Part shown: in pieces, positions 1,944 to 63,199 of the stretch
How the letters are laid out: each line of letters begins with the position of its first letter
Numbering within the stretch: position 1 is the first letter of the stretch
NCBI GenBank assembly: GCA_964540065.1
Contig: CAZIKY010000003.1
Span: 9,186 to 73,185 of the forward strand
DNA: 64,000 nucleotides
Reading direction: 5' to 3'
From: Candidatus Woesearchaeota archaeon
GTDB lineage: Archaea > Nanobdellota > Nanobdellia > Pacearchaeales > JAHJTO01
Made by a program: the position numbers and the translations under genes
The notes under the pieces: generated by a model
Told to the model about the DNA's origin: nothing
The model's input: the letters and a program-made list of their open reading frames with translations, nothing else
The model's database searches: none

Positions 1944-2081
1944 GGGCCTGTAGCTCAGCCTGGTTAGAGCACTGGTCTTATATGACACTGATTCGTTAGG
2001 ATTAGTCTTCCCTTAGGAAGTCCGGATTCATTCCGGATCTAAGAGAGCCAGTGGTCCGCAGTTCAAATCTGCGCAGGCCCA
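1944..2081 (+). tRNA. tRNA-Ile(UAU) with canonical 37/38 intron
   Basis: Acceptor GGGCCTG/CAGGCCC, D-stem GCTC/GAGC, anticodon stem CTGGT/GCCAG, anticodon TAT at 1979-1981, T-arm CGCAG-TTCAAAT-CTGCG; CCA not encoded. Confidence 0.92.
1983..2045 (+). other. 63-nt tRNA intron bounded by a bulge-helix-bulge motif
   Basis: 4-bp helix CTTA(1977-1980)/TAAG(2040-2043) flanked by 3-nt bulges TA^T and AG^A; intron-side pairs GA/TC. Confidence 0.9.
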
Positions 2082-5800: not shown

Positions 5801-6508
5801 TTAGGCGCTTCCCGTGCATAATTCCCCTCCATCTACCTGTAAAAGGGCTCCATTAATGTAGCTCGCTTCATCAGAGGCCAAAAAGGCAGCTGTGGCGGCT
5901 ATTTCTTCTGGTTTTCCTATGCGGCCCATAGGATTGCTCTTGCCATATTCTTCCCTAGCTTCTTTTCTGGACCCTACTGTGCTGCTAAGCATGTTTGTGT
6001 CTATTGGACCAGGCATTATGGCATTGACCCTTACCCCTAAAGGAGCATTTTCCTGTGCAAGAATTTTTGTGAGCATGTTTATTCCAGCCTTAGAGATACA
6101 ATATGCAGCTGCATCTTTAGCAGGAACCACACTTATAATTGAAGAAATATTGATGATATTCCCTTTGCTCTTTTTGATAAGTGGAACAGCATGTTTGGAC
6201 ATTAAATAGGCCCCGCGAAGGTTAACATTTATCGTTTTGTCAAATTTCTCTGTTGATCCGCCGATAGGTTCCATGAACAGAATACCTGCGTTATTAACCA
6301 AGATATCAAGCTTCTTTATCTTTCCAATGGCTTTCTTAATTTCCTCTTCTTTAGAAACATCGACTTTATGAAATTCGACTTTGTAATCCGGTTTATTTCT
6401 TCCAAAAACAATTACCTGGGCGCCTTCTTTGATGAACCTCTGAGCTATTGCTCTCCCAATACCGCTAGAAGCTCCAGTGATTAAAGCCACCTTATTTTTT
6501 AATAGCAT
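5801..6508 (-). CDS. SDR family NAD(P)-dependent oxidoreductase
   Basis: TGASSGIG, NNAG, YCISK, PGPIDT; start taken at MLLKNK. Confidence 0.93.
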   Translation of the reverse strand: MLLKNKVALITGASSGIGRAIAQRFIKEGAQVIVFGRNKPDYKVEFHKVDVSKEEEIKKAIGKIKKLDILVNNAGILFMEPIGGSTEKFDKTINVNLRGAYLMSKHAVPLIKKSKGNIINISSIISVVPAKDAAAYCISKAGINMLTKILAQENAPLGVRVNAIMPGPIDTNMLSSTVGSRKEAREEYGKSNPMGRIGKPEEIAATAAFLASDEASYINGALLQVDGGELCTGSA

Positions 6509-6547
6509 AACATACTCAAGCAATCTTAGCTTATAAATTAATTGCTG

Positions 6548-6766
6548 CTAATCATTCTCAGTCTTGTACTTGGCTAAACGCGAGAGGGGAACATATGCGG
6601 AGCATAATGGATCCGGGGTTCTGCATTCACTGCAGACGTAAGCGGCTGATCCTTCTTTCAGATTAATCGCCATTTCTTTCCCCGTAGTGCTCTCATCTTT
6701 CTTAAGAAAATATTGCCAAATACACCGATCATCTGTCCCTAGAACTTTCTCATCAATGCCTGCCAT
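6548..6766 (-). CDS. Small hypothetical Cys-containing protein (possible Zn-binding)
   Basis: ORF fills gap; Cys residues in RCIW, CSEC and LCSAY; start taken at MAGIDEK. Confidence 0.5.
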   Translation of the reverse strand: MAGIDEKVLGTDDRCIWQYFLKKDESTTGKEMAINLKEGSAAYVCSECRTPDPLCSAYVPLSRLAKYKTEND

Positions 6767-6899
6767 TTTAATTAGGATCTGTTCTGGAAGAAATGATAAA
6801 ACCAATACAATTTAGATTAGCTTCACAAGTTTATATTATTTTGCATGAAATTAAATTCTCCTGTGAAAAATCTTTAAAGGACATTTCACAGTTTAAATC

Positions 6900-7457
6900 A
6901 TGGAAAAAAGACTAGAATCAGTTCTGAAAAGGATTGAGAAATTTGATGAAGAAGTCCCAACTGCCAGAATCTCAAGATCTAATGGGGAATTCCTTAGGTT
7001 CTTGGTCTTAGCGACAAAGTCAAAGAAAGTCCTTGAACTCGGATCTTCAGTAGGCTATTCAACAATATGGCTTGCAAGTGCCTTGAAAGAGACAAAAGGG
7101 CACATTTACACTGTAGAAACTTCTCAAGATCGTGCTGAACTCGCAAAAATAAATTTTCAGGATTCTGGGCTGGGTAAAAACATTATTTTAATTGAGAAAG
7201 ATGCCTTAGAAGTCATGTCAAGCTGGAAAAACGGGAAGCTGGACATTGTTTTTATAGATGCGATGAAGCGGGATTACCTGAAGTATTACCTCGCAGCCAT
7301 GCCTTTGCTTAAGAAAGGCGGAATTATAATTGCAGATGATGTGATTAAACTAAAAGATAAAATGAAGGATTTTCTGAGTTATGTCAATAACGACAAATCA
7401 GTTTATGCTTTAACTCTCGACTTAGATGATGGAATAATGCTTATATACAAGAAATAA
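6900..7457 (+). CDS. Class I SAM-dependent O-methyltransferase (YrrM/TrmR / Methyltransf_3-like)
   Basis: VLELGSSVGYSTIW, DIVFIDAMK..Y, GGIIIADDV. Confidence 0.85.
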   Translation: MEKRLESVLKRIEKFDEEVPTARISRSNGEFLRFLVLATKSKKVLELGSSVGYSTIWLASALKETKGHIYTVETSQDRAELAKINFQDSGLGKNIILIEKDALEVMSSWKNGKLDIVFIDAMKRDYLKYYLAAMPLLKKGGIIIADDVIKLKDKMKDFLSYVNNDKSVYALTLDLDDGIMLIYKK

Positions 7458-7491
7458 TCAGATTTTTAAACAAGCCGTAAATTCTATAGCC

Positions 7492-8373
7492 ATGGATTAC
7501 AAGACAATAACCTTCTACCGATACGTCAAACTCGATCGCCCGGAAGAGCTTAGAGGGTATTTCAGGGGATTATGCGAATCCCTTGATTTGCTTGGGAGAA
7601 TACTTGTGAGCAAAGAAGGAATTAATGCCGGAGTTTCCGGCCCAAAGGCAGGAATCGAGAGATTCAAGCAAGTCATAGATAAAAAAAGAGAATTCACTAA
7701 AATGACTTACAGGGAACAGGAAGTCCCGCAAAATTCATATCACAAGCTTGTTGTAAGAGTAAGGGATGAAATTGTAGCCCTTGGAAAAGAAATTGATCTT
7801 TCCAAGAAAGGCCAGCATTTATCCCCAAAAAGATTCAAGAGATGGCTTGACCGCAAGGAAGATGTGATAATTTTAGATGCAAGGAATGATTACGAGGCTA
7901 AAATCGGAAAGTTTGAAGGGGCAGTTGTTCTTCCGATTAAAACTTTCAAAGAGTTTCCTAGAGAAGCTGAAAAAGCTTTGAAAGGCAAGGAAGACAAGAA
8001 AATTGTAATGTACTGCACTGGGGGGATAAGATGTGAGAAATCTTCTGCATACTTAAGACAGAAAGGATTCAAAAAGGTTCTTCAGCTTGAAGGAGGGATA
8101 ATAAACTATGCAAATCAATTCCCAAACGACCATTACAAAGGAAAATGCTTCGTCTTTGATGATAGGCTAAGCGGAGAAGTAAACTCCAGCAGGATTTTGA
8201 GCAAGTGTGAGATCTGCGAAGCCGATTCTGATGCCTACATCAACTGTCATAACTTGGAATGTGACCGGCTCATAGTTTCATGCCCCGACTGCCAGGACAA
8301 AATGAATAAGACTTGCTCTGAAAAATGCAGGAACGCTCCAAGGCAAAGGCCTCTGCTCTTGATTTCTAATTGA
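7492..8373 (+). CDS. trhO: TrhO/YceA-like rhodanese-domain tRNA U34 hydroxylase
   Basis: GRILVSKEGIN, LVVRVRDEIV, LDARNDYE..IGKF, MYCTGGIRCEK, QLEGGIINY, GKCFVFDDR, C-terminal Cys cluster. Confidence 0.9.
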   Translation: MDYKTITFYRYVKLDRPEELRGYFRGLCESLDLLGRILVSKEGINAGVSGPKAGIERFKQVIDKKREFTKMTYREQEVPQNSYHKLVVRVRDEIVALGKEIDLSKKGQHLSPKRFKRWLDRKEDVIILDARNDYEAKIGKFEGAVVLPIKTFKEFPREAEKALKGKEDKKIVMYCTGGIRCEKSSAYLRQKGFKKVLQLEGGIINYANQFPNDHYKGKCFVFDDRLSGEVNSSRILSKCEICEADSDAYINCHNLECDRLIVSCPDCQDKMNKTCSEKCRNAPRQRPLLLISN

Positions 8374-8782: not shown

Positions 8783-10285
8783 ATGTCAAAGAGGCTGATT
8801 TTAATAGCAGTTATCTTAGCCTTTTCTTTAGCACTTCTAAACCCCGTCAGCGCAGAAGACAAGAACGTCTATACGACTCTGACATTAGACATAAAAGAAG
8901 ACCTAACATTTGATTTTAGCTACTCTGTAGACTTCGACTCCGATGATTGGTTTAACATAAAAAGAACCTTTTTCATAAACAAAGAATATTCCAACGTTCG
9001 GATATACGACAGCGAACGCCGGCTCAAAATAGTAGATCAATATGAAGATGAGAGGAACAATAATTATGTTCATACGATAGATTATGGGAAGAGTGAGGGA
9101 CGTAAGAGGTTATACATCAATGCCACCGGAAAGTTATATGACAAGGGCACTGGGATATACCACTGGGATGCAGGGTTTTATTCCGGCGCAGGATTGATAC
9201 TGAATTCTTTAGAAAAAAGAAAAGTCATATTGAGGTATCCAAGATCGATGAAATTTATATCTGCTTCAGGAGATGGATTAGAGAGTGTAAGGGAGGGGCT
9301 GGGATTCACCGAATTAAATTACGGGCCGGAAGTTTCAGGATTAATATTCACACTATCAGATAAAGAGGTTTATGACAGCCTTCTAAGGTTAGAAAGTGGG
9401 AAGAATGTGTTTTTTGTCCAAAATGACTCCTTGTTGGAGCAATTAGCCCTAGAATCAATAGATGGCTTGAAGTTCATAATGGATTTCCCAAGGGAAGGAA
9501 AGGTTTATGTCCTTTTTGATGAGCGCGACAATGAAATAGCAGAATACGAAAGAAACAGGGTTGTTTTTGTCAACAAATCCTATCTCGAGAGCAGGCCGCG
9601 GGACAAGGTTATTTCAACAGTCCTCCATGAGCTGACACATTATGCGGTTGTAGAAAAATGGGCAAAGTACTATCCCGAATGGCTTGATGAAGGCGTGGCA
9701 GTTTATACGGAAATAAAATTCTTAGATGAAGCATATTACAAAGCTAATCGATCTTTCGAGGATTACTATTGGGACGATAAAAAGATAGAAAAGGAGATAC
9801 TTTATGAGTGGTATGGAAAAGGAGAGTACTTGGAAGAGCTTGACCCTTCAGAATTCGAGTTCAAGTACGACTATTACGGCTTCCTGATAAACTATTTTGC
9901 AAAGACTTATGGAGAAGACAGGCTGAGATATGCCCTTTCTGAAATCCAAAGAAGGATCGATAAATCTTTTATAGACCCAGATCTGAAATATGATCCTGAA
10001 GCTACGACTGAAGAGGTTTTCGTAGAATTGACTGGAAGCAAAGAAAACTTATTCTTCCCCAAGAGAAGCCTTTTCTTAAATGATAAAGAGGCCTTCGATA
10101 GGGAATTCCGCGAGTTTTATGTTATCCCCGAAGAGATAGATGTAATAAGAAGTGAAGATTCCACTTGGGGACAAAGGATGCTGGAAAGAATAATCGGCGT
10201 TGCATTTTTAGCAGGATTAATTTGGCTCCTTGTTAAATTAGTCAAATGGTTAAAAAGAAAGGTCAAAAGGCTAAAAGCCAAATAG
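8783..10285 (+). CDS. Secreted, C-terminally anchored Zn metallopeptidase (gluzincin-like)
   Basis: Signal peptide (PVSA/ED), HELTH followed by WLDEGVAVY, C-terminal TM helix and basic tail. Confidence 0.8.
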   Translation: MSKRLILIAVILAFSLALLNPVSAEDKNVYTTLTLDIKEDLTFDFSYSVDFDSDDWFNIKRTFFINKEYSNVRIYDSERRLKIVDQYEDERNNNYVHTIDYGKSEGRKRLYINATGKLYDKGTGIYHWDAGFYSGAGLILNSLEKRKVILRYPRSMKFISASGDGLESVREGLGFTELNYGPEVSGLIFTLSDKEVYDSLLRLESGKNVFFVQNDSLLEQLALESIDGLKFIMDFPREGKVYVLFDERDNEIAEYERNRVVFVNKSYLESRPRDKVISTVLHELTHYAVVEKWAKYYPEWLDEGVAVYTEIKFLDEAYYKANRSFEDYYWDDKKIEKEILYEWYGKGEYLEELDPSEFEFKYDYYGFLINYFAKTYGEDRLRYALSEIQRRIDKSFIDPDLKYDPEATTEEVFVELTGSKENLFFPKRSLFLNDKEAFDREFREFYVIPEEIDVIRSEDSTWGQRMLERIIGVAFLAGLIWLLVKLVKWLKRKVKRLKAK

Positions 10286-10329
10286 CAGGATTTATAAACC
10301 ATCAAAATAGACCCTAGTTGTACACGATA

Positions 10330-32498: not shown

Positions 32499-33098
32499 TC
32501 AAAGGGCTATAGAAAAATTCCTTAAATCTCGCTTAAGCTGCTCTGCATTTTTGAATAATATTGTCTTAATTCCAATCTTCTCTGCAGCGAGAAGATTCTC
32601 TTCCTTATCATCTATAAATAGACAATCTTGAGGTTTGGCCCCCAGTCTTTTCAGAATTCCCTCGTATGCCCCCCTGTCTGGTTTAGATATCCCATTTTCA
32701 AATGAATAAAGTGTAGAATGAAATAGTTTATGGTAGCCATATTTATTATTACAATGCTCGATCCATTCCCTTCCGTGTACGGAAAGGAGCCCTAGCTGAA
32801 ATCCATGGGACTTTAGCTTCTCAATTATTTCTCTAGTGCCTTCTATTTCGACAAAATTCTCTCTTATAATGCCCTTAACCTGTTCAGTGCTTAACTTCCA
32901 ATTATTTTTTTTAATCACTTTTGAGATATATTCTTCTTCAGTTATTTTACCATGAAAAAAATCTGTACGATCGGTAGGCCTAAGCATCTTGTAAATTTCT
33001 TTTTCAGTAAGACCCAATAAGGGCTTTAAAGCGCGCTCTACACCGAGAAGCCCTCGAATATAAACTTCGCCCAGATCAAATATGATAGTCTTAACCAT
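32499..33098 (-). CDS. HAD-superfamily hydrolase/phosphatase
   Basis: IFDLGEV, KPD, FIDD..EN. Confidence 0.88.
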   Translation of the reverse strand: MVKTIIFDLGEVYIRGLLGVERALKPLLGLTEKEIYKMLRPTDRTDFFHGKITEEEYISKVIKKNNWKLSTEQVKGIIRENFVEIEGTREIIEKLKSHGFQLGLLSVHGREWIEHCNNKYGYHKLFHSTLYSFENGISKPDRGAYEGILKRLGAKPQDCLFIDDKEENLLAAEKIGIKTILFKNAEQLKRDLRNFSIAL

Positions 33099-33202
33099 AT
33101 ATTGGCCTACCGAAATCAGTATTTAAAATTAATCGATCAACGGCGATTGTTATTCCCAATGTTTAAACAAAGTTTAAAAGTCCGCGAGGGCACAAACATA
33201 CC

Positions 33203-35152
33203 ATGGCCGAAGCACCAAAACAACAGGAACAGCAGCAGCAGCTGGAGCATATAGATGAGTTCAATATTTTAGTTGGAGCAATAAAAGATTACAACCCGCA
33301 TGCCGACTTGAATCTCATAAGCAAGGCCTTCGAATTTGCTTCAGCAGCGCATAAAGGCCAAAAAAGGGAATCTGGAGAAGATTATATAACTCATCCTATA
33401 GGGGTAGCGCAGATACTTACTGAAATAAAAGTCGATTCCCTAACAATTGCCGGAGCATTGCTTCATGACGTTCTTGAAGATACAAATTCCACAAAAGAAG
33501 AGATGATTAAGGAATTTGGACAGGAAGTCACAGACCTTGTTGAAAGCTTGACAAAGATAGACAAGATACACTTCAAAACAAAAGAAGATTATAGTGCGGA
33601 AAACATAAGGAAAGTAGTTCTCGCAATGTCTAAGGACGTTAGAGTCATCCTGATAAAACTTGCCGACAGACTCCATAACATGCGGACTCTTAAGTCCAAA
33701 CCTGAAAAAGACCGCATAGAGAAATCAAAAGAGACTCTCGAAATTTATGCTCCCATCGCCTACAAACTGGGGATTTACAAGATCAAGGCAGAGCTTGAAG
33801 ATCTTTCAATGAAATTCCTTGAGCCGGAGATCTATCAAGAATTAAAAGAAAAGATAGCAAAGAAAAAAGGCGAAAGAGAAGAAGATGTTGCGATTATAAC
33901 TAACCAAATCACAAATTTGATGGAGTCTAAGGGAATCAAGGCAAGAGTTTTTGGAAGGGCAAAACACTTCTATTCGATTTACAAAAAAATGCTTAAGCAT
34001 AAAGTGGGATTTGATGAAATCTACGACCTTCTTGCAGTAAGGATCATCACCGCCTCAGTAGATGATTGCTATAGGGCTCTGGGAATTATCCATTCAACTT
34101 TCACCCCGATACCTTCATTCTTCGAAGACTACATAGCCACTCCAAAAGCTAACGGATATCAAAGCATCCATACAAAAGTAGTTTACGAAGGAAGGCCACT
34201 CGAAGTTCAGATAAGAACAGTGGATATGCACCACATTGCGGAAGATGGAATAGCAGCCCACTGGAGATACAAAGAGACAGAATATGACAAAAGATTCGAC
34301 AAGAAAATATCATGGCTGAAGCAAATACTTACTTGGAAAAGGGAAGCAAAAAGCGCAAAGGAGTTTATAGAATCCTTAAAAATTGATCTGTTCGAACATG
34401 AAATAGTCGTTCTTACCCCCAAGGGAGATCCCGTTTCTCTCCCGGAAAGTTCTACGCCAATAGATTTTGCGTATCATCTCCACACAGAAATCGGAAACAC
34501 CTGCCAGAAGGCAAAGGTAAACGGAGTCATAGTTTCCTTGGACCATGAATTAAAGTCCGGAGATATAGTTGAGATCTTGACTTCAAAAAACTCTTCTCCA
34601 TCGAGGAACTGGCTTAAATTCGCCAAAACATCATTTGCAAGAGCCGAAATAAGGCAGGCCCTGGATATCAAAGGAGTCCAAAGAGAAGATGATTCAGAGG
34701 ATTTCCTTCTTGCCCAGGAAATTCTAGTCGAGGATCCAAGGATGAAAGAAAGGCTGAGAATTTCCAGATGCTGCAATCCAAGATTTGGTGAAGAAATAAC
34801 TGCCTTTGTCCTTAAAGATGGAAGAATAAGCGTTCATAGGACAAATTGTTCCAACTTAGCCGAGCACAAAGACCTCAAAAGAGTAAATGTAAGCTGGCCT
34901 CCACCCAAAAAAGAGGTTTTAACGCTTGACATCTCTGCCACAGATAGGCTAGGTTTATTGGCTCAGATACTCAACATAATTGCTGAAGCAAGCCTAAACG
35001 TCAAATCGATAAATACTGCTGAAAGAAAGGGTCATTTTAAGATAATGATTAATGTGGAAGCAGACGATTTAAATAAAGCGAAACAATCTGCAGATAGAAT
35101 AAAGAAGATAGCAAGTGTAAGCACAGTCTATCTCCATAAAGAGCAGCATTAA
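33203..35152 (+). CDS. rel: Long bifunctional RelA/SpoT homolog ((p)ppGpp synthetase/hydrolase): HD-SYNTH-TGS-ZFD-ACT
   Basis: HKGQKRESGEDYITHP, LHDVLED, KLADRLHNMRT, GRAKHFYSI, DLLAVR, NGYQSIHT, EVQIRT, AAHWRYK, TGS, CCNP..H..C, DRLGLL. Confidence 0.95.
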   Translation: MAEAPKQQEQQQQLEHIDEFNILVGAIKDYNPHADLNLISKAFEFASAAHKGQKRESGEDYITHPIGVAQILTEIKVDSLTIAGALLHDVLEDTNSTKEEMIKEFGQEVTDLVESLTKIDKIHFKTKEDYSAENIRKVVLAMSKDVRVILIKLADRLHNMRTLKSKPEKDRIEKSKETLEIYAPIAYKLGIYKIKAELEDLSMKFLEPEIYQELKEKIAKKKGEREEDVAIITNQITNLMESKGIKARVFGRAKHFYSIYKKMLKHKVGFDEIYDLLAVRIITASVDDCYRALGIIHSTFTPIPSFFEDYIATPKANGYQSIHTKVVYEGRPLEVQIRTVDMHHIAEDGIAAHWRYKETEYDKRFDKKISWLKQILTWKREAKSAKEFIESLKIDLFEHEIVVLTPKGDPVSLPESSTPIDFAYHLHTEIGNTCQKAKVNGVIVSLDHELKSGDIVEILTSKNSSPSRNWLKFAKTSFARAEIRQALDIKGVQREDDSEDFLLAQEILVEDPRMKERLRISRCCNPRFGEEITAFVLKDGRISVHRTNCSNLAEHKDLKRVNVSWPPPKKEVLTLDISATDRLGLLAQILNIIAEASLNVKSINTAERKGHFKIMINVEADDLNKAKQSADRIKKIASVSTVYLHKEQH

Positions 35153-35158
35153 TGTAAA

Positions 35159-35362
35159 ATGGTTAAAGAGGTAAAAGCAAACGGCAAGAGATTCGCAAAG
35201 TTTTGCCCAAACTGCAAAAGCTTGGATATTGACATGGAGCTTTCAAGCGGATGGTTTATAGGCTTTCCTGCTTCATATAAATGCAACAGCTGCGGAAGAA
35301 AAAGCAGATTCTTCCCGGAAGTTGATGTAAATGAAATAAAAAAGAAAAATGGAAAAAAGTGA
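35159..35362 (+). CDS. Small Zn-ribbon protein
   Basis: CPNC...CNSC; 6 nt after rel stop, overlaps map. Confidence 0.75.
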   Translation: MVKEVKANGKRFAKFCPNCKSLDIDMELSSGWFIGFPASYKCNSCGRKSRFFPEVDVNEIKKKNGKK

Positions 35363-36244: not shown

Positions 36245-37870
36245 CTAATCGTTTTTAGTCGATCCCATTAAAAGATCGTTTTCTAAATAATCATCTAAAT
36301 ACCCTTTACCTTTCTTAATTATATTCTTCTGATTATAATTTATGTCATTGGAATCCAAACCATATAAATCTCCTATAAGATTTTTATAGGAAGGGATGGC
36401 ATAAATGCCGGCAGAATATTTTTTAGAGGGATTTTGATCAAGATATAAACTTTTCCCGCTCTTCCAAAGATCATCCAAGTTCCGATTACGATATATTACC
36501 TGGCCAAGATCTATCTTACTTCCTATTTTTTTCTCTAATCCTTTTTCATAAACTGAAACTAGTTTTTCAGCATCTGCAGCAACTTCCCCTGGTTCAGGAT
36601 TCATGTAAGCAAAGTTTTCAGGAGATCTTCTCAATAAAGCAAAAAGTTCTTGCAGATCTCCAAGATCTAAGAAATTGCTTCCTAAGAACATGGAGCGGCT
36701 AAGAGGTGTTGCGCTAAAAGCATTATGGTAACCTGCCTCTAAGCCTTTTACAAAAGATATCCTAGAGCCATCAAACATGCTCCAAGGTTCATTTCCGCCT
36801 AATACTCCTCCTATCGCTCTCAGACTTATAGGGCCATATGTAAATGTGCTTGCAGCCAAATTATCTAGTTCTTTCTTTTGTATCGCTTCCAACTGAGACT
36901 GAGATAGCTCAGTCAAATCGCATGAAGCATCAAAGTCTACTAATCCTACTTTAAGATTATTACCTTCCCTGTAGAGTACTATATTTCCAATATGTGCGTT
37001 GGTCCTTTCAGAATCGCAGCTCCAAGTCTGCCCACTGGCATCCATAAGGCTTTTCAATCCACCAACTGCAAAGCCGACTCTCCAATAAAAGTTTTGTAGG
37101 GCTTTGAAAAATTTATTTCCTGATTTTGTATCGCCATCATATTCTGTGCGGACCATTTTACCATCCTTTCTTTTTCTCCCTTTAGGCATTCTTTCCATAG
37201 CACCCTGTTCCAAAACAAGCATAAGCTCATCCAATCTTGTATCTCCTTTAACCTCAAAAATGGAAGCTGTAGGCCTTACGGCTTTTTTCGCCTTTTTATC
37301 TACATAAAGTCCGTATTTCCAAAGGCCCTCAAACTGCATTATTGGATCAATTCCCTCGTTTAGTAAAACTTGATTAAATCTATGAGACATATTCCTCTCA
37401 TAATAGGCATTTTGTTTAAGCTGCCCTCCATGAATTTCTACTCCATCTTCATATTTAGAAAGCCTTAAATCTTGAGGATTAAAAGAAACTCCTTTTATTC
37501 TATAGAGTTTGCCTGTTTTCGGATCTTGAGTTAAAACCGACCTATAACCACTCCAAATTGCTGGGATTAAGTCATTAGTTTGAGCAAGTAGTTCTGGTTT
37601 TTCAAGAGATTTTCCTTCAAAGATGTTGAGCCATACTTTCCACATGCCCTTACTTTGATCAAATTGCAAGTGTCTGCCCATATCGGCATAATCTTCGGCA
37701 GATTCAATTATCAGGTCATCAGATTCATCCCTCATGTCAATTCTTTGAACCATATGGGGATGAACAACTTTAGGCCCCTTAAGAAAATCCGGGAAATCAT
37801 AATCCCCGTAAACATCGCCGCCAGTGCTAACTAAAGCAGTCTTGTCCCTTTTCACCAATAATTTCATCAA
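36245..37870 (-). CDS. Hypothetical protein with atypical kinase/SelO-like motifs
   Basis: RIKG, ..YYE, NAHIGNIVL and LVDFD in kinase-fold order; AT-rich by eye. Confidence 0.5.
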   Translation of the reverse strand: MMKLLVKRDKTALVSTGGDVYGDYDFPDFLKGPKVVHPHMVQRIDMRDESDDLIIESAEDYADMGRHLQFDQSKGMWKVWLNIFEGKSLEKPELLAQTNDLIPAIWSGYRSVLTQDPKTGKLYRIKGVSFNPQDLRLSKYEDGVEIHGGQLKQNAYYERNMSHRFNQVLLNEGIDPIMQFEGLWKYGLYVDKKAKKAVRPTASIFEVKGDTRLDELMLVLEQGAMERMPKGRKRKDGKMVRTEYDGDTKSGNKFFKALQNFYWRVGFAVGGLKSLMDASGQTWSCDSERTNAHIGNIVLYREGNNLKVGLVDFDASCDLTELSQSQLEAIQKKELDNLAASTFTYGPISLRAIGGVLGGNEPWSMFDGSRISFVKGLEAGYHNAFSATPLSRSMFLGSNFLDLGDLQELFALLRRSPENFAYMNPEPGEVAADAEKLVSVYEKGLEKKIGSKIDLGQVIYRNRNLDDLWKSGKSLYLDQNPSKKYSAGIYAIPSYKNLIGDLYGLDSNDINYNQKNIIKKGKGYLDDYLENDLLMGSTKND

Positions 37871-60811: not shown

Positions 60812-63199
60812 TTACTTGAAAGCAAACCTCAGCAAAGCCCCAATCCCCCCAAGATTCTTGAATTGAACTCCTTCATCTGTCTGAGTTGAAATAAAAATCA
60901 CATCTGTTCCCATGGAGGCTGCGATCTCGCGGAGCTCATCCATCTTAGCTTTGTCAAGTTCTTTGGAAAGATACAATTTATCGGCAGCTCCGGCACTCAG
61001 AGCTTTTTTAACTTCGGCGTAGCCGTAAGCAACTTTGTCTGGATCTTTTCCAAGCGTAGTGAAAAAAGTTTTAAGAACTTCCTTCTCATGGGTTATTTCC
61101 TGTGCAGCAAGAATGTCTTGAGAAAGTTCGACAAGAACATGCAGGCCGTATTCATCAGTATAGCTTATGTCTTTTACTCCGATTATTTTATTCTTTATTG
61201 GGGTGGGGATCTGTCCTTCACTCAAGAAAGATTCCTTCGTTGGTCCGGGCCCGCCGACCAATATCCCTTTAAGCTTTTTCATTTCTGAGAACTGTTCTTT
61301 TACAGCTTCTCCGACTTTTCGGTAAAAAGCTAGGGCAAGTCCCTCGGTTAATCTTTCAAACCTCTGTGCCGAATTATGTACTACAAGTCCGTTAGCAATG
61401 AAGTTATGGTTCTTAGTCTCTATGTCTATGGTAATTTCTTCTCCAAGCTTTTCTATTTTAGAAATTTTTACTGCGATTAAGTTAGAGCCGTAAAACATCT
61501 CAAGCCTTTTTCTTAAGGATTCATCTGATATTTTATCCAAAATTCTCGCCTTGAAAACCTGCTTGCTTAATTGCTTCTTGTTTATAAAAAAATCTGGACA
61601 CATAAACCGGGTAGTATCCAAACCGGAATTTCTGATGATTCTCGCAACTTCCTTGCCGTTTACAACCAATTGCCTTACCTTATTGCGGTTGCTTCTTTTA
61701 GATATCAGTTGATTAATTTTATCTTGCTTTTCAAACGAAGTAAATCCAACCAAATCAAAAAATTTCTTTAAAGATTCAGTATCATCTATAGATACTATAT
61801 ATCTAAGGTTCTTAGAATAAGGATTTCTTTTATTGTCATAAGAGGAAAGAGAGGATATTATCCCCAACCTTAATAATGCTAATTGTAGCTGTCTTACTAG
61901 AACTTCATTGTTCATACTTAGAGATATTCTTCCGCTAGATAAAGAAATAGATCCTTCGGCATCAAACAAGCCAGAAATAAATGAAGCAAGTACTCTATCT
62001 GAAGATTTCAAGATAACTGGCGGGATTTTTTCATTTGAAGTTTTATCCTTTTCAGGGAATACACTCTTAAAGAATTGCGTGACTAATCTGCTATAAATTC
62101 TTAATTGGTGATAATTCTTAGAAGCCCTAAACGAATACTTAACTTCTAAACCAAAAAGGTTCTCCAGTAATAATTTATAACTCTCAGCAACTTCCTTTCT
62201 CTGCTCAAAGAAAGTTAATCTGTCCGTTTCGTGGCCACCATCACCCAAATAATAGCCAAAAACCTTTGCTAACTCAGGAGTTATTTTAGCTGGAAGCACA
62301 ACTTGCTTCATAGTCTTGTGTTCTATCTTGGGCTTAAAGTCTATAATTTGATCTTCTAGTTCTAGGTTTATCTTTTCTGGCATGACCAAGAAATCTCCTT
62401 CTTTTATCTCTGAAAGGGGCTTCTCTTCTATACCGTTTTCAGTTCTAACAAAGAAAGTATGGTCTGCAGAGGATTTTATCTCCATCCGAGGATAAGAAGT
62501 CGTCATCTTGAAAAGAGGTTTCTTATTCTCCCATTTAGCAATAATCGGGGTCTCTTCTATTGTTTCTTTATTAAAGTTCTCGGAAACAATGATCAAAGGG
62601 TTATGAGAATCTTTAATTTGAATTATATCTCCAGAACTTGTCATTAAAAGTGTATCTGGATGAAGACATTGACCGCCGGCCTTCATCTTCCCAGGAACAG
62701 CCGAAGTCATGTGTTTCAGCTTTCTTATGTGTTTTCCTTCAAGCACGCCGATCGTCGCTTCTCTTCTGTCCATAACGATCAATCCATAAACCTCTTGTGT
62801 TTCGAGGAGTTCTTTAAGGGGATCAACGACAAATTTCTGATCGCACCGATAAGTCTTCATATTAATAGGGCTTGGTGGCTCGATGCTCCAGAGCTTTATG
62901 TCGGGCTTGCCTTCATCTTTGCTTATGTTGCCGCAGAAAACTGCGAGCCCATTCTTTGGGGTCTGTTTGAACTGTCTTAGGTGCCTTGAGATCTTTCCGA
63001 GAGCTTCGATAACATTTTCTCTGGTGGATTTACTCTTAATATTTGAAGCAGTTCCCGCTTCAGAATCTACCTGCTTAGCCGATAGAATGATGCTGTATCC
63101 TGCAGGAACATAAACTGTAATTAGTTCAGTATGGCGCCCCCTATAAGAATCGAGCTCTTCTATGAGCCTTTCAAGTTGCATCCTTTCTTCATCTTCCAT
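60812..63199 (-). CDS. prf1: Peptide chain release factor aRF1, intein-containing precursor (795 aa; about 363 aa spliced)
   Basis: TELITVY, TASNIKS, YRCD, VPGKMKAGGQ|intein|SAQRFER, GILVGGPG.TK, GGIGALLRF. Confidence 0.96.
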   Translation of the reverse strand: MEDEERMQLERLIEELDSYRGRHTELITVYVPAGYSIILSAKQVDSEAGTASNIKSKSTRENVIEALGKISRHLRQFKQTPKNGLAVFCGNISKDEGKPDIKLWSIEPPSPINMKTYRCDQKFVVDPLKELLETQEVYGLIVMDRREATIGVLEGKHIRKLKHMTSAVPGKMKAGGQCLHPDTLLMTSSGDIIQIKDSHNPLIIVSENFNKETIEETPIIAKWENKKPLFKMTTSYPRMEIKSSADHTFFVRTENGIEEKPLSEIKEGDFLVMPEKINLELEDQIIDFKPKIEHKTMKQVVLPAKITPELAKVFGYYLGDGGHETDRLTFFEQRKEVAESYKLLLENLFGLEVKYSFRASKNYHQLRIYSRLVTQFFKSVFPEKDKTSNEKIPPVILKSSDRVLASFISGLFDAEGSISLSSGRISLSMNNEVLVRQLQLALLRLGIISSLSSYDNKRNPYSKNLRYIVSIDDTESLKKFFDLVGFTSFEKQDKINQLISKRSNRNKVRQLVVNGKEVARIIRNSGLDTTRFMCPDFFINKKQLSKQVFKARILDKISDESLRKRLEMFYGSNLIAVKISKIEKLGEEITIDIETKNHNFIANGLVVHNSAQRFERLTEGLALAFYRKVGEAVKEQFSEMKKLKGILVGGPGPTKESFLSEGQIPTPIKNKIIGVKDISYTDEYGLHVLVELSQDILAAQEITHEKEVLKTFFTTLGKDPDKVAYGYAEVKKALSAGAADKLYLSKELDKAKMDELREIAASMGTDVIFISTQTDEGVQFKNLGGIGALLRFAFK
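61373..62668 (-). mobile_element. Intein with LAGLIDADG homing endonuclease (432 aa) inserted between GGQ and Ser of aRF1
   Basis: N-terminal CLHPDT, block B SADH, LAGLIDADG-like FGYYLGDG and ISGLFDAEG, block F/G IDIET..NFIANGLVVHN, +1 Ser. Confidence 0.95.

Follow-up and report, generated by a model that had tools for sequence, protein, structure and literature searches.

A Rel-like long RelA/SpoT homologue with a strongly reduced helical domain in a DPANN archaeal chromosome

The closest described relatives of the gene reported here are bacterial long RelA/SpoT homologues (RSHs), namely the bifunctional Rel of Firmicutes (Bacillus subtilis, 6yxa and 6htq; Streptococcus equisimilis RelSeq, 1vj7), Escherichia coli RelA (5iqr, 5kpv) and SpoT (E. 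coli; Acinetobacter baumannii, 7qpr). The 2011 reference survey of RSHs recorded no long RSH in archaea (PMC3153485), and (p)ppGpp was still undescribed in archaea in reviews of 2021 and 2023. A 2021 comparative genomic study of DPANN archaea, in its passage on RelA/SpoT, reports the family in 41.7% of Woesearchaeota, 19% of Nanoarchaeota, 21% of Pacearchaeota and 69% of Diapherotrites and predicts a bacterial origin (PMC8407392). Here we describe rel, a gene at 33203..35152 on the plus strand of a 64,000-nucleotide stretch of DNA from Candidatus Woesearchaeota archaeon (contig CAZIKY010000003.1, positions 9,186 to 73,185 of the forward strand), the whole of which is called the window below. 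The gene has a stable place in the archaeal chromosome, and its product is an intact long RSH of the Rel type in which the core of the AH (helical) domain is absent. From comparison with its relatives, the product is probably a bifunctional Rel-type (p)ppGpp synthetase/hydrolase of bacterial origin, which would have been acquired by an ancestor of a large Woesearchaeales/Nanoarchaeia (DPANN) lineage and passed on vertically since.

That DPANN archaea carry such genes is already known, and the genes are auto-annotated. A first-pass annotation of this stretch had called the stringent response untypical of archaea while noting RSHs in some DPANN; their presence there is borne out, and the suggestion of rarity has to be qualified in view of the frequency already reported for Woesearchaeota (PMC8407392). 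The passages of that study on the family, which concern the same gene family in the same host group, comprise one sentence and a supplementary tree and hold nothing on architecture, AH loss, motif variability or mechanism. No account of a clade-wide AH reduction, of motif hypervariability or of a conserved chromosomal position was found in the literature searched.

The functions of the carboxy-terminal domains have been described for the bacterial proteins. The AH domain of E. coli RelA (EcRelA) comprises 96 residues (amino acids 485-580) and consists of linker helix 1, a core (about 520-560) that lies on the D stem of the tRNA, and linker helix 2, which lies on the ACT domain; the RIS (585-660) and ACT (665-744) domains anchor the enzyme at bridge B1a (A-site finger, uS19 and uL16), with or without tRNA (PMC4974054). 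In B. subtilis Rel the TGS-Helical unit binds deacylated tRNA specifically and in a manner that depends on H420 (PMC7797070), and the role of this TGS histidine, which stacks on the CCA end of the tRNA, is described in PMC7797070 and PMC9974481. Shorter linkers between the helical (HEL) and zinc-finger (ZFD) domains go with the compact, hydrolase-ON (tau) state, and the TGS histidine is no longer present in the SpoT of A. baumannii (SpoT_Ab), an enzyme independent of the ribosome (Tamman et al., PMC9974481).

The rel open reading frame (ORF) encodes a protein of 649 amino acids, a long RSH at full length, with the domain order HD, SYNTH, TGS, a reduced helical stub, a CCHC zinc finger and ACT/RRM. 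Pfam matches were obtained to HD_4, RelA_SpoT, TGS and ACT_4 with E-values from 5e-46 to 4e-10, and close relatives of the protein have a precomputed match to PF28438 (RelA_RIS). The gene and its parts are as follows.

33203..35152 (+): rel gene, Rel-like bifunctional-type long RSH (ORF, Pfam, NCBIfam, Foldseek, phmmer, AlphaFold2)
33326..33775 (+): HD hydrolase domain, amino acids 42-191 (PF13328, E 5e-46)
33953..34282 (+): SYNTH domain, amino acids 251-360 (PF04607, E 7e-41)
34118..34129 (+): FFED at the RxKD/ExDD position, amino acids 306-309 (translation)
34406..34582 (+): TGS domain, amino acids 402-460 (PF02824, E 5e-21)
34589..34753 (+): AH/Helical remnant, amino acids 463-517 (alignments, AlphaFold2, no PF19296 match)
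34754..34897 (+): ZFD/RIS zinc-finger domain, amino acids 518-565 (alignment to the EcRelA ligands)
34922..35131 (+): ACT/RRM domain, amino acids 574-643 (PF13291, E 4e-10)

The protein scores 690.3 bits against the NCBIfam family model TIGR00691 (spoT_relA), above its cutoff of 499.2, and lies below the cutoffs of both equivalog models, NF008124 for RelA (425 vs 728) and NF008303 for SpoT (551 vs 947). The HD, SYNTH, TGS, ZFD and ACT/RRM domains and the catalytic motif residues are all present, and the first-pass annotation of a full-length long RSH with both catalytic sites in an archaeon holds. Among solved structures phmmer ranks B. subtilis Rel first (6yxa, E 6e-151), with mycobacterial Rel next and EcRelA after it, and identity to B. 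subtilis Rel is 50% across 472 aligned columns (Foldseek). Because the protein has neither the full AH domain nor the RxKD/ExDD motif, it is filed as Rel-like rather than among the orthologues of either RelA or SpoT; by these comparisons it is a Rel-like long RSH from an archaeal clade with a reduced AH domain.

Compared with Firmicute Rel, the order HD-SYNTH-TGS-(helix)-ZFD-RRM is the same, identity is about 50% over the N-terminal domains (NTD) and TGS, and both have the active-type HD motif, the CCHC finger and the histidine of TGS; the archaeal protein differs in lacking about 87 helical residues (B. subtilis about 493-595), in having FFED where the Firmicute enzyme has RFKD, in its archaeal host, and in a gene neighbourhood without the apt-rel-dtd operon seen in bacteria. 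With EcRelA it shares matching SYNTH motif numbering, an acidic residue at 308 and homologous TGS, ZFD and RRM domains, but RelA is a monofunctional synthetase with a dead hydrolase, whereas the archaeal HD domain is intact, and the 96-residue AH of RelA (PMC4974054) faces only a stub.

The helical region is genuinely reduced, and this holds throughout the clade. The sequence RAEIRQAL ends at residue 488 and the CC of the zinc finger begins at 523, leaving 34 residues between them, and only about 55 residues separate TGS from ZFD. From the end of TGS to the CC there are 63 residues, vs 147 in EcRelA and 126 in E. coli SpoT (EcSpoT); across the archaeal clade this spacer measures 62-73 residues (median 64), and the bacterial Rel median is 141. 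In the HMMER alignments, residues 488 to 519 stand opposite 548 to 662 of Mycobacterium smegmatis Rel (30 vs 113 residues), and residues 500 to 518 opposite about 492 to 596 of B. subtilis Rel (17 vs about 104). About 83-87 residues are therefore missing relative to these two proteins, a loss that takes in the AH core and the greater part of linker helix 1, and a focused alignment places the cut in the archaeal proteins just past a conserved ARxxIRxAL helix. The AH model PF19296 (RelA_AH_RIS) gives no match to the protein even at E<=1, while it scores 43-57 bits with EcRelA, EcSpoT and a Rel from Mitsuokella. The first-pass claim that most of the AH region is missing is thereby confirmed against the M. 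smegmatis, B. subtilis, EcRelA and EcSpoT proteins, with no alignment restoring a normal AH length. Other segments are about equal in the archaeal clade and in bacteria (alpha6-alpha7 loop 13/13 residues, Core 50/51, ZFD-RRM 32/35).

An AlphaFold2 model of the protein (pLDDT 86, pTM 0.77) contains helices at 468-472 and 477-486 after TGS, then short helices at 499-504 and 512-517 leading into the ZFD, and a low-confidence linker at about 491-500 (pLDDT below 50 at 492-496). On this model the N-terminal third of linker helix 1 is retained, together, perhaps, with a vestige of linker helix 2. The predicted fold is compact, and in global comparison it comes nearest to the full-length SpoT structure 7qpr (TM 0.49, rmsd 13.6), with an rmsd of 35 to ribosome-bound RelA.

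This compactness brings in a different account of the protein, that of a ribosome-independent, SpoT-like enzyme that reads no A-site tRNA, rests mostly in a compact hydrolase state and has a weak synthetase switched by metabolites or partners acting through ACT/RRM, ZFD or TGS, as in SpoT or DarB-regulated Rel. The nearness to 7qpr favours it, as do the correlation of shorter inter-domain linkers with the tau state and with a bias towards hydrolysis (PMC9974481) and the finding that stable tRNA binding by B. subtilis Rel needs TGS-Helical and not TGS alone (PMC7797070). We nevertheless rate it as the less likely account, on evidence given below. The protein resembles SpoT in its (predicted) active hydrolase, its compact predicted fold and its short inter-domain linkers, but SpoT still has its HEL domain (in EcSpoT, 126 residues lie between the end of TGS and the CC) and matches PF19296, and SpoT_Ab combines a pseudo-SYNTH domain with a lost TGS histidine (PMC9974481), whereas SYNTH and the histidine are both intact in the archaeal Rel.

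A protein search yielded more than 120 Woesearchaeota/Nanoarchaeota proteins of about 630-650 amino acids with 50-66% identity to the window Rel. Many are auto-annotated at NCBI and many carry the label Woesearchaeota or Nanoarchaeota; the closest, at 64-66% identity, bear the name Nanoarchaeota archaeon or Candidatus Woesearchaeota archaeon. A scan of genome contigs with non-conserved peptide patterns yielded only 12 loci and, as to taxonomy, little more than the names Woesearchaeota and Nanoarchaeia. Residue conservation was assessed in an alignment of 72 archaeal homologues, with selected columns counted over 120 or 126. The hydrolase residues H50, R55, H64, H88, D89, E92, D155 and N159 are intact in the window Rel, and both they and the synthetase residues G251, R252, K254, K262, D275, R280, E334, Q336 and R338 are invariant or nearly so among the 72. 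G251, D275 and E334, which correspond to G251, D275 and E335 of EcRelA, are kept in 119-120 of 120 homologues. The zinc ligands C523, C524, H545 and C549 (EcRelA C612, C613, H634 and C638) are invariant across the clade, the TGS histidine H427 (EcRelA H432, B. subtilis Rel H420) is kept in all 120, and D581 of ACT/RRM, equivalent to the ribosome-contacting D675 of EcRelA, is kept in 113 of 126. Other EcRelA ribosome contacts (RIS helix 638-647, R670, Q705/6 and R739) were considered as discriminators and rejected, being poorly conserved even among bacteria.

The invariance of the synthetase residues and of the TGS histidine speaks against the SpoT-like account, since SpoT_Ab has a pseudo-SYNTH and has lost that histidine (PMC9974481). 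So does the constraint on the domains, expressed as identity at matched NTD divergence in the archaeal clade vs bacteria: TGS (0.575 vs 0.547) and the post-TGS helix (0.535 vs 0.446) are conserved at least as well as in bacteria, and RRM about equally (0.245 vs 0.247). Because these identities match or exceed the bacterial ones, the C-terminal domains are not decaying. By these measures the catalytic centres and the TGS, ZFD and RRM domains are under purifying selection clade-wide, with some change at the ZFD.

The motif FFED (F306-F307-E308-D309) lies in register with E306-F-D-D309 of EcRelA and R290-V-K-D293 of EcSpoT. The RxKD/ExDD motif is reported to set the preference for GTP vs GDP (Sajish 2009, as cited in PMC3153485). 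The first-pass annotation combined the two unusual features of the protein into one reading, in which the short AH is an adaptation to the archaeal ribosome and FFED possibly signals a changed product (pGpp or ppApp). The reported link of the motif to GDP/GTP preference lends that reading some weight, as does the finding that no RxKD is left among the 15 nearest relatives, which differ among themselves and carry EFTD, EFSD, SFDD, KFDD, QFTD, HFSD, GFHD, GFQD, RFHD and GFED. Its observation that FFED belongs to neither class was correct and is confirmed by translation, but the motif defines no diagnostic third class, positions 306 and 308 being hypervariable. Position 306 is occupied in the clade by R (68), K (19), G (10), E (5), H (4) and others, and position 308 by K (57), D (37), S (9), T (5), H (5), E (2) and others; the variants include RFKD (37), RFDD (27), KFKD (14) and about 30 more, among them EFTD and GFHD, with FFED seen once among 120 homologues. 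The surroundings, in contrast, are fixed in the clade (H297, F307, D309, Y310, P314, K315, N317, Y319, S321, H323 and T324).

Variation of this kind also occurs in bacteria. Canonical-length bacterial Rels with an intact HD domain carry EFDD, QFDD, MFTD, MFYD, LFYD, YFND, TFDD and others, and about 15% of canonical-length bacterial representatives deviate from RxKD; because of such proteins the RxKD/ExDD dichotomy is, on the sequences compared, a simplification. When co-variation with RxKD loss was examined in the sub-lineage of the window Rel, no compensating basic residue was found elsewhere in SYNTH. The window Rel keeps the flanking residues shared with EcRelA and SpoT (F307, D309, Y310, P314, K315, N317, Y319 and H323), and because these are unchanged the sequence gives no support for a different product. 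FFED may shift the preference for the acceptor (GDP vs GTP), and nothing in the sequence speaks for pGpp or ppApp as product.

The archaeon-specific part of the same reading was examined with an exhaustive HMMER search over 1.84 billion cluster representatives. About a dozen further short forms were recovered (636-651 amino acids, each with one matched stretch), alongside canonical forms with an AH of 125-160 residues and a minority of intermediates with an AH of 78-106. Wherever its context was sampled, the very short form (62-73 residues) has archaeal neighbours (Cdc6/Orc1, TFIIS-type ribbon, DUF357 among those examined), which favours an archaeal adaptation. Five of the intermediates were examined, and the neighbours of each are bacterial (HU, SecDF, apt-rel-dtd, bL27, flagellar hook, Pol III alpha, sigma-70); Caldisericia are one such group, and the focused alignment indicates that these proteins have lost the three-helix AH core and kept a longer linker helix 1. 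Because loss of the AH core is found in bacteria too (Caldisericia and others; Rels of 657-692 amino acids, AH 78-101), it cannot clearly be put down to adaptation to archaeal ribosomes. With the motif read as ordinary variation and AH-core loss as not specific to archaea, as these comparisons indicate, the joint reading of ribosome adaptation and changed product is improbable.

No description of the bacterial Rels without an AH core was found in the literature examined. They are 657-692 amino acids long, have 78-101 residues from the end of TGS to the CC, and keep both RxKD and the apt-rel-dtd operon; one is encoded at 6001-8028 of a Caldisericia-type contig, and similar forms occur on four other bacterial contigs. 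They share with the archaeal Rel the absence of the core, a sub-threshold PF19296 score and a nearby position in neighbour-joining (NJ) trees, and differ from it (the Caldisericia protein, for instance, at 675 amino acids) in that linker helix 1 and the pre-ZFD linker are longer (78-101 vs 62-73 residues), in keeping RIKD or RVKD, and in their bacterial operons.

Trees were built by NJ from simple distances over the NTD and TGS columns only. The short-AH proteins form a single group with a transfer bootstrap of 0.97, and their nearest bacterial neighbours repeatedly include forms without an AH core. We conclude from the trees that one, or very few, ancient transfers of rel from bacteria to archaea would account for the clade; the donor may itself have been without an AH core.

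On another archaeal contig that encodes a short-AH long RSH, with Cdc6/Orc1 and a TFIIS-type ribbon as neighbours, a 270-amino-acid protein with only the RelA_SpoT domain (a small alarmone synthetase, SAS) is encoded at 9477-10289 (-), 2.5 kb away, and some DPANN genomes may thus encode two RSHs. This SAS could be the main synthetase in that member of the clade, a point for the SpoT-like account; in the 64-kb window itself no SAS or small alarmone hydrolase (SAH) paralogue is present, a point against it.

The surroundings of rel are archaeal. The window encodes a family-B DNA polymerase (PolB), FEN1, Cdc48, TYW2/Trm5 and endonuclease dU, as well as HerA-like and RFC-like ATPases and a Rad51/RadA-like protein, and GC is flat across the rel locus at 0.39-0.40. 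An intein-split aRF1 and a tRNA gene with a probable intron, both described below, belong to the same archaeal set. An exact look-up of the window protein in a contig index gave no entry, and gene context was therefore compared in relatives. The order TYW2 ... kinase-like ATPase - FEN1 - PolB - rel - Zn-ribbon ORF - MAP ... Cdc48 is kept in relatives, as seen in three independent assemblies (JGI, Logan and NCBI) at 64-66% identity; no synteny was found between the window and three more distant archaeal rel loci. The first-pass annotation had judged a contaminant segment unlikely, and these data agree. Because the gene order is the same in three independent assemblies, contamination and chimerism are excluded for practical purposes. 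The broader idea that rel stems from bacterial contamination or assembly chimerism, or is a recently transferred gene in decay, could draw on the identity of about 50% to B. subtilis Rel in the catalytic half and on an extra HAD gene between polB and rel that is present in the window genome only. It is scarcely credible against the conserved gene order, the uniform composition, the intact frame, the catalytic residues invariant in more than 120 homologues of 630-650 amino acids, and the A/T-rich archaeal-type promoter context upstream. Two further features flank the gene.

33162..33179 (+): A/T-rich TATA-like elements TTTAAAC and TTTAAAA, 24-41 nucleotides before the ATG (read from the sequence)
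35159..35362 (+): Zn-ribbon ORF of 67 amino acids with CxxC...CxxC, which starts 7 nucleotides past the rel stop and overlaps the map start

The position of the two upstream elements fits a putative archaeal promoter with a leaderless transcript or a very short 5' untranslated region. The Zn-ribbon ORF, which has only sub-threshold zinc-ribbon matches in Pfam, is kept at the same place in the loci of the three closest relatives (51-53% identity, E about 1e-14) and is absent from the more distant archaeal rel loci examined; it is possibly co-transcribed with rel.

Several other features of the window were recorded. Two lineage-specific insertions are the only departures of the window from the gene order shared with the compared loci: the HAD-family hydrolase gene between polB and rel (32499-33098, -) and, between map and cdc48, a 540-amino-acid ORF (36245-37867, -) that has no Pfam match and stands where deoxyhypusine synthase is encoded in relatives. 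Apart from Rel, the sole TGS protein in the window is an Obg-like (YGR210/YchF/Drg-type) GTPase, which has its TGS domain at the C terminus (662-1846, -). The aRF1 gene (60812-63199, -; 795 amino acids, eRF1 domains 1-3) is split by a LAGLIDADG intein, the Intein_splicing and LAGLIDADG_3 matches sitting between eRF1_1 and eRF1_2. A tRNA gene at 1944-2081 (+) has a full-length Rfam match over 138 nucleotides, implying an intron, and was missed by ARAGORN in bacterial mode.

For the probable bifunctional Rel the following mechanism is proposed. The enzyme would both make and degrade (p)ppGpp, with a compact (tau-like) default state in which the hydrolase is ON and the synthetase OFF, and a starvation cue acting on the C-terminal domains would switch it to synthesis from ATP and GDP or GTP. 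The likeliest cue would be the 3' end of uncharged tRNA, read by the invariant TGS histidine, while ZFD and RRM would dock on the universal ribosomal site (A-site finger H38, uS19 and uL16). With the AH core lost, TGS and ZFD would be joined by the conserved short helix and a flexible linker of about 30 residues, so that coupling to tRNA and ribosome, if kept, would rest on TGS, ZFD and RRM alone. FFED would be a variant of neutral or tuning effect at two positions under little constraint, affecting at most the GDP/GTP preference and leaving the chemistry unchanged. Uncharged tRNA on the archaeal ribosome is put forward as the activating ligand tentatively, a ribosome-independent signal being about as probable. 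The full scheme of a stringent response in DPANN (Woesearchaeales/Nanoarchaeia), in which an AH-less Rel docks by ZFD/RRM, reads tRNA with TGS alone and makes (p)ppGpp, is doubtful.

Several observations weigh against this interpretation as a whole or in its parts. Isolated TGS of B. subtilis Rel shows no stable tRNA binding (PMC7797070), and for that reason the loss of the helical region could abolish tRNA sensing. The TGS histidine is also present in E. coli SpoT, so its conservation is no proof of tRNA sensing. The archaeal clade has a faster-evolving ZFD than bacteria do (identity 0.355 vs 0.473 at matched NTD divergence), and this weaker constraint favours the SpoT-like account. In the trees the strict bootstrap of the short-AH clade is 4/100, nine divergent members changing place, and the sister group of the clade changes between data sets, for which reason no donor lineage is claimed. 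Finally, no RNA-seq run contains the rel locus, which was found only in subsurface metagenome DNA.

The window rel is no surprise in itself, and its value is as a cheap experimental entry into the archaeal stringent response: a well-conserved DPANN Rel clade makes the question of such a response testable with one recombinant protein. That nature has all but deleted the helical domain here and kept TGS, ZFD and RRM provides a ready experiment on the role of that domain in tRNA and ribosome sensing, and likewise informs on its contribution to the conformational switch between hydrolase and synthetase. If an AH-less Rel coupled to the ribosome does operate in these archaea, it would be the first case of archaeal (p)ppGpp signalling and would define a minimal architecture for ribosome-coupled Rel activation.

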